Sequence record: MH517022.1
Strand: one strand, 5' to 3'
Length of the DNA: 64,000 bases
Origin: Acinetobacter phage SH-Ab 15599
In this document: one piece after another, positions 1-41,423 of the stretch
Numbering within the stretch: the stretch's first letter is position 1
How the letters are laid out: every line of letters starts with the position of its first letter
Translations under genes and position numbers: made by a program
Notes under the pieces: model-generated
Databases searched by the model: none
The model's input: the letters and a program-made list of their open reading frames with translations, nothing else
What the model was told of the DNA's origin: nothing

Positions 1-109
<109 letters not shown>

Positions 110-396
110 CGCAAGGAGTATCAAACCTGCAGGGACTTCGGAGAAGTAGAACAAATTGTGCGGCAAAGCATTTTGTTCATTTAGAGTTCTGTTAGGCTCT
201 AAATCTTCTCAGAACAACAATAACACTCTTAACCAAAATGCTATTGCCTAACGCTCATGAATACTAATATAATGAGTTCAGTATAAAAAGTCTAATTGGA
301 AAAACCGTTCCTAATAATTTATTTTTCCAATGCTGATATTTTTACTGTAACTATTGGATAACATTAAAATAAATTAAATTATTTTTATTTTACCCC

Positions 397-425
397 TTTA
401 CTTCAGAATTGAACTACATTATAAC
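397..425 (+). promoter_or_regulatory. Sigma70-like early promoter (TTTACT-N17-TATAAC) pointing into the ORF-free region
   Basis: tttact at 397-402, 17-nt spacer, tataac at 420-425. Same architecture as seven other promoters in the window. Confidence 0.5.
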
Positions 426-1058
426 TATCGGGCTGGTGCGTCTTTAACCATGTTTGACAAATCCAGTCCGTATGCGGCAACTGATGAAGAATCAGTACAG
501 TATACTGAATCGAAACAGGAAAGTGAAACCTGTTTGTCACGCTCTCCATCTTATGATGCGCAGTGTGATTGGCGCCAAAATTGAATCGAGCCAGATTATA
601 GGAGACACTTGATACAAAGCTTCTTATTGAAGTGATTTCATTGGTACATCTAGGTCTATAGACCCAATCATCAAATCCAATGATCTTATTGTACTTGTGA
701 CTGTGGAACGTTATGAAACCTATTTGATTGATAATATCTTAGAAATCTGTTTCAAGTTGATCATTTAGTTATTCCTTGGCGTTTAAAAATAATGAAGGAA
801 TAAGGTAGCGTTTATTGAATGTTTATTTCAATAAGGGTTCCGACAGATTGAGTTGTTTTCATTCTGTTGGTTGAGGGCTTCTCAATCTAAGATGACAGAT
901 GAAGTTGATTTTGAAACCTAAGAAATTTCAGATTCAAATTAATCTTGAGAGAGCTAACCGTAAGGTTAAAAGAATTGAGTATCAGCATTTCCAGATTGGA
1001 GATGTCCAATTAACAGATTGGGGCTGTTTAAGTTTTGATTCTCTTGTAAATTACAGAT

Positions 1059-1085
1059 ATCAGATTAATTTCTGATTTATTTTTA
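1059..1085 (+). terminator. Rho-independent terminator-like hairpin (atcaga-ttaatt-tctgat plus T run)
   Basis: 6-bp stem with a 6-nt loop followed by ttattttta. Confidence 0.4.
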
Positions 1086-1169
1086 AATGTAATAACGAGA
1101 GATATTGAATGATGAAACGGTTTGAGAAAAATGGGGAGGTATACCCGTAATTCACACCCCCAGGGGTCA

Positions 1170-1191
1170 ATGCGAGGGCGAAGCCCGAGTA
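1170..1191 (+). repeat. Left copy of the atgcgagggcgaagcccgagta motif (inverted copy at 63897-63918)
   Basis: 22-nt match with one mismatch to the reverse complement of 63897-63918. Confidence 0.7.
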
Positions 1192-1386
1192 TTGACACAT
1201 CGCGAGAAGAAAAAGAAAGCAAAGTAAAAACTACCCTGAAAATCAATCTGCTAAATAATAGTGAAGGGTAGAACGTAGTGAAGATCAATAAACTCACTGC
1301 TGAAATCTATTAAAAATGTAAATAAAGAGTGTTGTTTTTAATTCACTACGTTTTACCCTGTCTCCTCCAATACAATAATAAGTGTT

Positions 1387-1405
1387 CCACACGGTAGGCT
1401 GAGAG
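1387..1405 (+). repeat. ccacacggtaggctgagag motif, copy 1
   Basis: Identical 19-mer at 20383-20401. Near-identical at 35414-35431. Inverted variant at 63851-63869. Confidence 0.8.
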
Positions 1406-1617
1406 TCAAAAATAACACCCAAACTCTACTGTAAATTACAAGCCATAAAAACCCAAAATTAAGATATTATTGTTCATGAACAAAGTGCCCTAATAAAAAT
1501 ACAGAATTGATTTCTGACGTCTTGTTTTTCTTCCCTTATGATAGATTCCACTAAGATATATTCAGCCTTTATATTTCACGATAAAGGGTTATAATTGTTT
1601 CACTCGGAGAAAGACAG

Positions 1618-2310
1618 ATGTCTAAATCAATCACGCTATCTGCTAATACATTGGGTATTTTAAAGGTGGCATCTCAAATTAACAATGCAGTATTGTTCCG
1701 CGCTGGTAATGAAATTAAAGCAACAACAGAATCAGGTATCATCATTCTTCAAGCTACAATCGATGAAGAGTGGCCGCGTGACTTTGCCATTCTTGAGCTC
1801 AATCGTTTATTACAGGTACTGAACCAATCTGCTATGACTGGCGCAGCTCTTCATTTTGAAGACGGTAAAGAGTGTGTTGAAATCAAAGCATCTCGTTCAC
1901 GCGTGCGTTATAACTTCTCTGATATGGAAATGGTTACATCTGTAGACCGTACAATTGTAGTTGAACCTAATGACGTTAATCTCTCTTTTGATTTGAATGA
2001 ACAAACATTAAATGACGTTCGCAAAATGGCGGGTGTATTGGCCCATAGTCATTTACGCATCGAGTGTAAAGACAATACAATTAAACTGATCACTTATGAT
2101 CCAAAATTAGATGACCTGTCTAACGAATATACAACTGAAATTGAAGTTCCAGAAGGCGCTAATTTTGCTGATGGTACTTTCAACATCAAACTTGAAAACA
2201 TGATCTTGTTGCCTGGTTCTCATAAGGTTTCAATTTTTAAAGGCGTTGCTGCTGAATTTGCTCATCAAACTGTGAAAGCAAGTATTTTCATGGGTCTTGA
2301 AAAAATGTAA
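1618..2310 (+). CDS. 45: Sliding clamp (T4 gp45-like)
   Basis: 230 aa. N-terminal and C-terminal blocks align to T4 gp45 by eye. Sits immediately upstream of the gp44 homolog, as in T4. Confidence 0.8.
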   Translation: MSKSITLSANTLGILKVASQINNAVLFRAGNEIKATTESGIIILQATIDEEWPRDFAILELNRLLQVLNQSAMTGAALHFEDGKECVEIKASRSRVRYNFSDMEMVTSVDRTIVVEPNDVNLSFDLNEQTLNDVRKMAGVLAHSHLRIECKDNTIKLITYDPKLDDLSNEYTTEIEVPEGANFADGTFNIKLENMILLPGSHKVSIFKGVAAEFAHQTVKASIFMGLEKM

Positions 2311-2399
2311 TAATAGGGGGAGAATATCTCCCCTTGATTTTACCGACTCTTTACCGTAACATATTATCGTATTACTGAATACATTAAGGACAGATCCAA

Positions 2400-3371
2400 A
2401 TGTCAACTGCAACAATTCAAGCAACTGATCCAACTCACTTTTTGTGGGTCGAAAAATTCCGTCCAGACAACATTGAAGACACAATCTTGCCCCAAGATTT
2501 TAAAGCTTCATTAATGAAGGGTATACAAGAAAGCAAATTACCATCTTTCATTTTTTATTCTCCTTCTCCAGGCACTGGTAAAACTACAACTGCTTTAGCT
2601 GTAGCAAAGTCTGTTGGAAGCGTACTTTTCTTAAACGCATCAATTGATAACTCTATTGATACTATCCGTACTCGTATCACCCAATTTGCAACTACATCAT
2701 CTTTGAATTTTGACAAACCATTCAAAGTCGTAGTATTGGATGAGGCAGACCGTCTATCCCCTGCTGCTCAAGACGGTTTGAAAGCTCTTATTGAAGACGT
2801 TTCAAAGAACTGTTCATTCATCTTAACATGTAATAATAAAGCCAAACTGATTGATCCTTTACGTTCTCGTTGTTCTGAAGTGGACTTCATTTATAGTAAA
2901 GCTCAGCAGCTTGAAGTATCTACATTGATGTTAAAGCGTTTGATTGATATCTTGGAAGCAGAAGGCGTTCCATATGACGTGAAAGCATTAGGTGCTCTAA
3001 CAAAAGCTGTGGCCCCAGACAACCGTAAGTTGTTGCATATTTCTCAAGAATATTTTAACCGTCATGGTAAAATTGATGAAGGCATTTTAGCCCTTCAAAA
3101 ATCTCGTGATGTGAAAACGTATATTGATTGTATCCGTAAAAAGAACTTTGACCCTATGGTTCAGTGGTGCGTAGACAACTCTGATTCAATTGGTGAAGAC
3201 ATTTACCGCTACATCTATGACGCATTGAAAGATGACCTTACAGATCAGTCTCGCGCTTCTCTCATCTTGACTTTGAACGATTACCAACGAGTTCATAATA
3301 CAGTTCCAGACCGTTTTGTACACTTCACTGCTATGTCTACTCAGGTTATGATTGATACAGTATTCAAATGA
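2400..3371 (+). CDS. 44: Clamp loader large subunit (T4 gp44-like, RFC or AAA+ family)
   Basis: WVEKFRP, the Walker A motif SPSPGTGKTT, DEAD-like VLDEADR and an SRC motif. Close match to the T4 gp44 N-terminus. Confidence 0.9.
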   Translation: MSTATIQATDPTHFLWVEKFRPDNIEDTILPQDFKASLMKGIQESKLPSFIFYSPSPGTGKTTTALAVAKSVGSVLFLNASIDNSIDTIRTRITQFATTSSLNFDKPFKVVVLDEADRLSPAAQDGLKALIEDVSKNCSFILTCNNKAKLIDPLRSRCSEVDFIYSKAQQLEVSTLMLKRLIDILEAEGVPYDVKALGALTKAVAPDNRKLLHISQEYFNRHGKIDEGILALQKSRDVKTYIDCIRKKNFDPMVQWCVDNSDSIGEDIYRYIYDALKDDLTDQSRASLILTLNDYQRVHNTVPDRFVHFTAMSTQVMIDTVFK

Positions 3372-5251: not shown

Positions 5252-5313
5252 CCCATTAAAACAATAGCTTAACAAGGGAAGTAAAATATTTTTAAAAATA
5301 TTTTGAAAACCAC

Positions 5314-5342
5314 TTTACTTCCTACGTTAAAAAGTTAATAAT
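5314..5342 (+). promoter_or_regulatory. Early promoter ccacTTTACT-N17-aataat
   Basis: Matches the recurring promoter architecture. Followed by a leader containing ctcatcggagta before the ATG at 5419. Confidence 0.5.
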
Positions 5343-5418
5343 AGCTTTCATACAGGCTGAGATTGAAAATAAAGAAAATCTAGTCTGAACTTTACTAACA
5401 CTCATCGGAGTATCAGAA

Positions 5419-6702: not shown

Positions 6703-6731
6703 TTTACTTTCTAGTGATTTGGGCATATAAT
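6703..6731 (+). promoter_or_regulatory. Early promoter cccacTTTACT-N17-TATAAT
   Basis: Perfect -10, 17-nt spacer. Leader tcgctcatcggagta sits 10 nt before the ATG at 6772. Confidence 0.55.
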
Positions 6732-39732: not shown

Positions 39733-39761
39733 TTTACTTGTTTGATTTTTACCATTATACT
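39733..39761 (+). promoter_or_regulatory. Early promoter cccacTTTACT-N17-TATACT
   Basis: Leader aactctcaacggagatt sits 10 nt before the ATG at 39811. Confidence 0.5.
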
Positions 39762-41394: not shown

Positions 41395-41423
41395 TTTACT
41401 TTTCATGAATCATCCATTATAAT
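41395..41423 (+). promoter_or_regulatory. Early promoter TTTACT-N17-TATAAT upstream of the HU-like gene
   Basis: Perfect -10. Leader ends acttttggagaaatgac before the ATG. Confidence 0.55.

Follow-up and report, generated by a model that had tools for sequence, protein, structure and literature searches.

A candidate gene for a large, highly structured noncoding RNA upstream of gp45 in Acinetobacter phage SH-Ab 15599

What is encoded in the gap of about 1.5 kilobases (kb) that lies directly upstream of the sliding-clamp gene gp45 in Acinetobacter phage SH-Ab 15599? The stretch of DNA analysed here, termed the window, comprises the first 64,000 nucleotides (nt) of the sequence record of the phage (MH517022.1), a contig of 143,204 base pairs (bp), in which the protein product of gp45 is 100% identical to SHAb15599_00003. 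The phage is distantly related to the Ackermannviridae and carries a T4-type replication module (PMC8878043, PMC10057805), and its description as T4-like in an earlier, sequence-only reading of the window is apt only in a loose sense. That reading had proposed a unit of about 650 nt, running from a promoter at 397-425 to a terminator at 1059-1085 and producing a noncoding RNA (ncRNA). An ncRNA made from this promoter is strongly supported by conservation, by compensatory changes on the + strand and by a structure-dependent covariance-model match, but the proposed extent is not, as the conserved structure runs to 1359, or ~930 nt. The interval is very probably a selected, structured RNA element of the + strand, and the balance of the evidence leans towards ~430-1359 encoding a large ncRNA of ~930 nt with a high degree of structure.

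Gene orientation flips at the position of the element, from leftward in the tail genes to rightward in the replication genes. A gene-free gap of ~1.45-1.55 kb between a leftward tail-lipase gene and rightward gp45 is likewise found in phage nACB2 and in three metagenomic contigs recovered from assemblies (L003, L006/L087 and L101), and in nACB2 it is 8x the length of all other gaps annotated within the first 50 kb, none of which exceeds 178 nt. The nACB2 gp45 is 59.7% identical to that of SH-Ab 15599 and was the only match above 33% identity in a tblastn search of phage records, while nucleotide searches of the same records with the interval and with the gp45-gp44 region gave no match. The assembly contig L003 is 98.9% identical to nACB2 across the junction. 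Scans with a gp45 profile returned one useful viral contig (L006) and one short metagenome contig, with no match in bacterial genomes, and a tail-lipase search added L101, its other matches being unrelated phages that have only the tail-fibre module in common. When IMG/VR was scanned for five conserved motifs, the only contig recovered was L006/L087, two further motif matches inside helicase genes being attributed to chance. In what follows, nACB2, L003, L006 and L101 are referred to as the nACB2 lineage, with SH-Ab 15599 representing the other deep lineage. Between the window and nACB2 there is a colinear series of common islands, consisting of the promoter, TTTGNCAAATCC..CC.TAT.CGGCA, GGTC-loop-GACC, TGATGRAAYGGTWTGAGAAA, the hairpin H_A and AAAATCAATnnnCTAAATAATAGTG. 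The sequence-only reading had suggested examining the conservation of the region in related phages; the gap is present in nACB2, L003, L006 and L101, and the colinear islands are present in nACB2.

The preservation of base-pairing under substitution was assessed within the nACB2 lineage by predicting the fold from one sequence and reading the substitutions from another. Over L003 2920-3420, where L003 and L006 differ at 88 positions, the L003 fold combined with the L006 substitutions contained 11 pairs that had changed on both sides and were still paired (null 2.5 +/- 1.4; P<0.0005) and 13 that were broken (null 33.7 +/- 3.7; P<0.0005). The reciprocal fold test agrees on the + strand, and the + strand comparisons gave 9-11 pairs changed on both sides and kept (null 1.6-2.5), with 13-20 pairs broken (null 34-40). 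With L101 added and the whole RNA considered, the + strand signal was seen in three of the four reference folds (P<0.0005); on the - strand the same pairing tests gave a signal that was weak or absent. L006 and L101 differ by 11 substitutions, and all four of those that fall in + strand pairs keep the pairing in a wobble-compatible manner, whereas all six that fall in - strand pairs break it. Of the 140 pairs that RNAalifold yielded, both sides had changed in 10 and none was broken (slid controls 0-1). L006 also has a 61-nt insertion, which coincides precisely with a hairpin loop. In helix H4 of nACB2, a candidate tetraloop-receptor motif was rejected on inspection, as it is not conserved in L006.

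Compensatory changes in helices can also be followed between the two deep lineages. In the 5'-terminal hairpin (H1/H2), 4 of the 10 pairs have changed on both sides and none is broken (slid controls 0), and in the closing helix Px, which is GGCTGTTT/AAACGGTT in the window and GTATCGTT/AATGGTAT in nACB2, both sides have changed in 4 of the 8 pairs. The strands of helix H7 are CATTGG/CCAATG for SH-Ab 15599 and GAATATAG/CTATATTC for nACB2, and in both lineages the helix encloses 32 nt containing a GGTC-loop-GACC hairpin. The nACB2 form of H_A (GTAATG-CGAG-C-GAA-G-CGAG-TATTAC) differs from that of the window by matching deletions on both arms, and the place of H_B is taken in nACB2 by a stem of 16-20 bp of unrelated sequence, one pair of which is G-C in L003, G.U in L006 and A-U in L101. 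MAFFT with RNAalifold gave no common stem for the H_B region, the stems being out of register between the lineages. A covariance model of the H5-H8 domain (R2), built from L003 and L006 only and searched over the 64 kb on both strands, returned window 609-694 as its top match, with 27.8 bits and an E-value of 0.0025, the runner-up scoring 16.2 bits. A model of the same alignment that used sequence without structure (R3) gave no match at 609-694, which indicates that the R2 match rests on structure.

The + strand of the window is strongly structured over ~756-1400, with z-scores down to -5.9, and is more stable there than the - strand; over 1400-1600 z is ~0. Among the individual features (Table 1), the 5'-terminal hairpin has a predicted energy of -15.7 kcal/mol (z -3.1), the three strong hairpins have a + strand z of -4.9 (-45 kcal/mol vs -28 on the - strand), and the Px domain, H_A and H_B reach -27.7, -18.9 and -33.1 kcal/mol with z-scores of -4.7, -4.9 and -5.9, respectively. 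Two local structures described in the sequence-only reading, the palindrome GGTCTATAGACC at 653-664 and the hairpin AAACAGG/CCTGTTT (513-519/529-535), were both confirmed. The latter belongs to the lineage-variable hairpins, for which no cross-lineage alignment is possible; L006 has an extra hairpin at their place, which is absent from nACB2. The run of short hairpins has a parallel in nACB2, where such a run likewise stands directly before the next helix and the 10-mer YTGAGTATCA is common to both. As a separate observation on H_A, the 21-mer AATGCGAGCGAAGCGAGTATT, which forms its tip in nACB2 (window 1169-1193), occurs exactly in 7 unrelated contigs of bacterial MAGs (L092-L099), against a chance expectation of ~0.3 by our own estimate, and caps a longer palindrome each time. 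Five of the 7 palindromes have TAACGCC...GTTAG ends and resemble integron attC sites; a direct-repeat search on two of these contigs found no array.

Table 1. Positions in the window of the features of the candidate RNA gene, its neighbours and the open reading frames (ORFs) that overlap it
Feature	Position	Strand	Basis or remark
Promoter P1: -35 TTTACT (397-402), 17-nt spacer, -10 TATAAC (420-425), extended box CCCCTTTACTT	397-425	+	
5'-terminal hairpin: H1 (430-436/463-469) enclosing H2 (440-442/456-458)	430-469	+	Fold and covariation
Conserved unpaired GTATGCGGCAA	470-480	+	Conserved island after 5' hairpin
Lineage-variable hairpins: 481-495, 498-507, 513-535 (AAACAGG/CCTGTTT), 536-569	481-569	+	Minimum-energy fold
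Three-helix domain: H6 (620-623/629-632), H7 (639-644/677-682), H8 GGTC-TATA-GACC (653-664)	609-694	+	R2 match
Three strong hairpins: 769-803, 811-835, 845-888	769-888	+	Fold; nACB2 correspondence uncertain
Short-hairpin run: AACC-GTAA-GGTT (956-967), 985-1005, 1006-1021	956-1021	+	Fold
Px domain: closing helix 1022-1029/1115-1122 around composite hairpin 1034-1109	1022-1122	+	Fold and covariation
Conserved 20-mer TGATGAAACGGTTTGAGAAA, includes 3' strand of Px	1110-1129	+	Colinear island; unique in window
Hairpin H_A: GTCAATG-CGAG-GGC-GAA-GCC-CGAG-TATTGAC	1166-1196	+	Tandem G.A pairs, GAA loop
Most conserved unpaired segment AAAATCAATCTGCTAAATAATAGTG	1239-1263	+	22/25 positions identical in all lineages
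Terminal hairpin H_B: 18-bp stem (1265-1282/1342-1359), 59-nt loop with conserved patches	1265-1359	+	Proposed 3' end or processing site
Unstructured tail, A-/C-rich, G-poor	1360-1560	+	z about 0
gp45 promoter region: box TTCAGCCTTTATA (1561-1573), TTTATA-16-TATAAT (1568-1595), GGAG (1606-1609)	1561-1617	+	Scan and conservation
gp45 sliding clamp	1618-2310	+	Downstream neighbour of element
gp44 clamp loader	starts 2400	+	After gp45
Annotated ORF, 44 amino acids	450-584	+	GenBank hypothetical protein SHAb15599_00001
TTG ORF, 52 amino acids	454-612	+	ORF scan
ATG ORF, 58 amino acids	899-1075	+	ORF scan; GenBank hypothetical protein SHAb15599_00002
ORF, 89 amino acids	1028-1297	-	ORF scan

Transcription of the element would start from promoter P1, which has hexamers and a 17-nt spacing of the sigma-70 type (T4-early-like). 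The sequence-only reading had called it a consensus promoter: the hexamers are at the positions that it gave and are conserved together with their spacing, but strict consensus is not attained, and a strict consensus scan omits P1 because its -10 hexamer ends in C, not T. Promoter-like sites occur in 1-3000 at background frequency (14 found vs 10.9 expected), and the weight given to P1 comes from its conservation and from the recurring CTTTACTT...ATTATAAT family to which it belongs, not from its consensus score. The counterpart in nACB2, L003 and L006 is TTTACT-17-TATAAT, with CTTTACTT-N-ATTATAAT at the colinear place, and boxes of this type are also found upstream of window ORFs at 6703, 39733 and 41395. 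The 5'-terminal hairpin begins ~5 nt past the -10 box, where the transcript would be expected to start.

Some further observations concern P1 and its surroundings. Extended-box sites, (CCCA)CTTTACTT with an A/T-rich -10, stand before + strand ORFs at 5313-5345, 6703-6731, 39733-39761 and 41395-41423, and probably represent the early promoters of the phage. The conserved CATAYRCGGCAA that follows the 5' hairpin is repeated once on the upstream side of P1, in a copy that is inverted in the nACB2 lineage (TTGCCGTGTATG; L003 2730-2741 and 2963-2974) and direct in the window (TGCGGCAA; 161-168 and 473-480); the two copies may form a pair of DNA-binding sites flanking the promoter, or may be due to chance. 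The stretch upstream of P1 (106-396) is gene-free and well folded, more so on the - strand (z -4.9 at 106-255), and in the nACB2 lineage the upstream stretch (L003 2549-2888) has a second CTTTACTT box at L003 2586 and, immediately ahead of P1, a strong hairpin that resembles a bidirectional terminator (L003 2845-2878) and to which many weak matches of small-RNA-type Rfam models fall. A separate small RNA may be present upstream of P1.

The element was compared with known RNA families by scanning window 1-3000, L003 and L006 with Rfam 15 at E<=10. No family reached its gathering score, including GOLLD, ROOL, OLE, HEARO, 6S, RNase P, tmRNA, group I/II introns and riboswitches, and the best matches within the element, to microRNA and snoRNA models, scored 18-27 bits where the gathering scores are 39-64; the lineages have none of these matches in common. 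ARAGORN found 0 tRNA or tmRNA genes in the 64-kb window. The sequence-only reading had seen no tRNA T-loop signatures, in agreement with the ARAGORN result, and had suggested the covariance-model scan, in which no known family was matched. Conservation, a considerable length free of ORFs and numerous covarying helices confined to one strand are traits that the element has in common with the large, ornate phage ncRNAs, as a kind and not by homology, and it most likely represents a new RNA family, matching no known one, of a known but poorly understood kind, the large phage ncRNAs.

Among these, GOLLD and ROOL form RNA-only homo-oligomers (PMC12286853) and are frequently found near tRNAs (PMC7567579). 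The element is comparable to them in being hundreds of nt long, ORF-free, rich in covarying helices, phage-borne and of unknown function, but differs in having neither an Rfam match nor tRNA genes in the 64-kb window. While GOLLD and ROOL are often seen in phages and prophages, the genome that hosts the element is that of a lytic Acinetobacter myovirus, and the element is seen in four genomes or contigs only. Further large ncRNAs are the long ncRNAs of phage K (PMC9241854) and the ICP1 ncRNA of ~800 nt, which is transcribed from an ORF-less gap of ~1 kb and is the most abundant ICP1 transcript (PMC7567579). The latter provides a close parallel, as ICP1 is also a large lytic myovirus in which an ORF-less gap of ~1 kb, not adjoined by a tRNA, is proposed to hold one long ncRNA; the ICP1 gap lies beside the lysis cluster, however, and that of SH-Ab 15599 lies beside gp45. 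Homology with the ICP1 RNA is not supported, there being no sequence match and the R2 score in the ICP1 gap (14.4 bits, E 0.065) being at background level.

A resemblance to sponge RNAs of the CsrB/RsmZ type was considered in view of a repeated motif. On the + strand of the RNA region of the nACB2 lineage CTGAG occurs 8-9 times and its complement 0 times (P about 4e-6), some of the copies forming C-UGA-G hairpin loops, whereas the window has 1 CTGAG and instead 8 CAGAT and 6 CAGATT (expected 0.5). Unlike in CsrB/RsmZ, the repeated motif is thus not conserved, and because it is lineage-specific the sponge-RNA reading was dropped.

It could be asked whether the gap contains small or degenerate protein genes instead, as GenBank annotates two hypothetical proteins there (SHAb15599_00001 and SHAb15599_00002). 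The limit of 45 codons that the sequence-only reading had given for the region is exceeded by three ORFs (58 and 52 amino acids on the + strand, 89 on the - strand), the first of which is SHAb15599_00002. Both annotated ORFs are singleton clusters among ~15 billion proteins and lack a Shine-Dalgarno sequence, and they are almost certainly not genes. Each of the six frames of 106-1617 holds 29-42 stops, and no conserved ORF was found there, nor, in agreement with the sequence-only reading, a convincing gene; tblastx showed no resemblance to the nACB2 region at the protein level. Against the nACB2-type regions tblastx gave a single short match, which covers the promoter and 5' hairpin in several frames and hence reflects nucleotide, not protein, conservation (the positive control, gp45, gave 7.5e-99), and the changes in 430-480 are compensatory in the hairpin and not synonymous. 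These results speak equally against a decayed gene in the interval, and the coding explanation is given next to no weight. An RNA of ~650 nt that starts at P1 and ends at 1059-1085, with the part downstream as a separate element, would be in keeping with the hairpin ATCAGA/TCTGAT (1059-1064/1071-1076) and the T-run TTTATTTTT (1077-1085), which are present as the sequence-only reading had noted. The putative terminator is weak, however, with a 6-bp stem containing 2 G-C pairs (-5.9 kcal/mol) that fails the terminator scan, and is not conserved, having no counterpart in nACB2, L003 or L006. Moreover, it is the tip of the composite hairpin of the Px domain, spanned by the covarying closing helix, and conserved covarying structure extends past 1085, via H_A and the most conserved unpaired segment, to 1359. 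No conserved promoter for a second RNA is present downstream of 1085, and this shorter unit appears quite improbable.

A more serious alternative is that of a structured 5' leader, in which transcripts from P1 would cross 1.2 kb into gp45-gp44-gp62-regA and the element would act in cis on the operon, by affecting its stability, by attenuation or resistance to Rho, or by being processed at H_B. The scans of the window and of L003 found no intrinsic terminator between P1 and gp45, the first one following gp45, and the element keeps the same strand and a fixed place upstream of gp45 in all relatives, both of which favour a leader. In contrast, gp45 has a promoter of its own, whose box, TTCAGCCTTT(T/A)TA, lies ~45-55 nt upstream of the gp45 start and is kept in three lineages including L090, which argues that the element is independent of gp45; the box may belong to an activator-dependent (middle-type) promoter, and TGTTCAT and TTGATTT, further upstream of it, are also conserved in three lineages. 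In addition, the ~250 nt of unstructured, C-rich and G-poor RNA before gp45 favour Rho termination of an untranslated RNA, with a C/G ratio of 1.6-1.9 in 1360-1560 vs 0.73 in the RNA body, and this tail is a possible Rho entry site. In lineages with 46-52% gp45 identity, the DNA available before gp45 (195-480 nt) shows no likeness to the element, and L086 (also L005; ~52% gp45 identity) has a small cysteine-rich ORF (L086 181-400) there instead of the RNA element. On these grounds a leader is considered unlikely. An origin primer has also been considered, that is, a folded pre-primer from P1 that would hybridise to the A+T-rich stretch 1360-1560 and prime the leading strand. Such a model has in its favour the location of the element at the divergent junction of tail and replication genes, at the head of the replication cluster, and a G-rich RNA body followed by a stretch of 30-33% G+C. 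H_A contains GCGAAGC, which forms a mini-hairpin of very high stability and is known from the origins of single-stranded phages. A predicted untranslated transcript, a dedicated promoter, adjoining A+T-rich DNA and close replication functions are shared with ColE1 RNA II, which is likewise folded, and with T4 oriF/oriG. Nevertheless, transcription across the A+T-rich stretch would yield an RNA rich in C and poor in G, the opposite of the composition that stabilises R-loops, no iterons or repeat arrays were found at the locus, and T4 origin transcripts are shorter than the element and much less structured, its 900 nt of covarying structure going beyond the needs of T4-type origins, for which a promoter and an unwinding element suffice; a primer is accordingly held to be improbable. 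A further alternative is a role of + strand hairpins in single-stranded DNA, for example in priming, packaging or recombination. The recurrence of AATGCGAGCGAAGCGAGTATT as the tip of DNA palindromes would fit such a role, but the folded region begins where transcription from a conserved promoter would be expected to start, and many G.U pairs and G-C/G.U/A-U transitions are tolerated on the + strand only. It would also require ~900 nt of continuous selected DNA folding, for which we know of no precedent, and it is thought very improbable.

It has to be noted that several points weigh against a ~930-nt ncRNA gene as well. The start, end and abundance of the transcript are all inferred, the lack of an intrinsic terminator between P1 and gp45 would be compatible with read-through into gp45, and thus with a leader, and the C-rich tail, marked in the window, is mild in nACB2 (C/G 1.2). 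The element is known from four genomes or contigs that represent only two deep lineages, and the cross-lineage alignment of ~690-1020 is unreliable. A further covariance model (R1), covering Px to H_A of the nACB2 lineage, did not recover the window region and had its best matches elsewhere, with E 0.26 and above; this failure may stem from the inner hairpin (85 nt vs 43 nt) and from the use of a single-lineage model. Finally, motif-repeat and in-window antisense searches indicated no specific partner or target, and the conserved single-stranded motifs have no antisense partner in the window.

In the model favoured here, that of a ~930-nt ncRNA gene, the host RNA polymerase would start at P1 early in infection, as suggested by the conserved sigma-70-type promoter, and the transcript would begin inside the 5'-terminal hairpin. 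The RNA would then fold into a chain of at least 10 helices or domains, the pairing of which is kept by compensatory changes, and would end with the 18-bp hairpin H_B, placing its 3' end near 1360. The hairpins at the two ends may protect the RNA and allow it to accumulate, transcription being stopped by Rho action or by processing in the C-rich, unstructured tail past 1360, and gp45 would then be served by its own conserved promoter. Whether the element is a stand-alone, trans-acting RNA and not a leader is a question on which the odds appear even. If it acts in trans, the RNA would do so via its fold, either by binding proteins as a scaffold or decoy or by self-assembling into a particle, and would in this resemble GOLLD, ROOL and the ~800-nt ICP1 RNA, being neither a message nor a guide.

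A few observations on the locus stand apart from these arguments. Positions 1-105 of the window are a run of 105 A, and no such run is present at that junction in the relatives (L003 is continuous there); the run is probably an assembly or record artefact, and the tail genes, as the actual neighbours on the left, would be found at the opposite end of the record. Within the RNA gene, identity between L003 and L006/L101 is ~95% over the right 760 nt vs ~79% over the left 700 nt, which suggests a putative recombination breakpoint within the gene in the nACB2-type sequences. L101 alone has a gene resembling GIY-YIG homing endonucleases (L101 3065-3640) between gp45 and gp44.

For the annotation of SH-Ab 15599 the consequence is a correction, in that the first two "hypothetical proteins" of the GenBank record are, with near certainty, not genes. 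What the finding can say is limited by the narrow distribution of the element and by the lack of a functional clue. It is rare for an RNA of bacteria or phages to be this large and to have so much structure under selection, and GOLLD, ROOL and OLE, recently shown to be striking RNA-only assemblies, still have an unknown biology. The candidate is found in a cultured phage of Acinetobacter baumannii that is relevant to therapy and for which strand-specific time-course RNA sequencing, with MH517022.1 as the reference, has been published (PMC13458397). The element may, tentatively, belong to an undescribed class of giant, ornate RNAs of ~0.8-0.93 kb confined to a new group of Acinetobacter phages related to the Ackermannviridae, made from an early, host-type promoter and acting alone as a folded particle, which could self-assemble in the manner of GOLLD and ROOL or trap a host protein of defence or RNA metabolism at the onset of infection.

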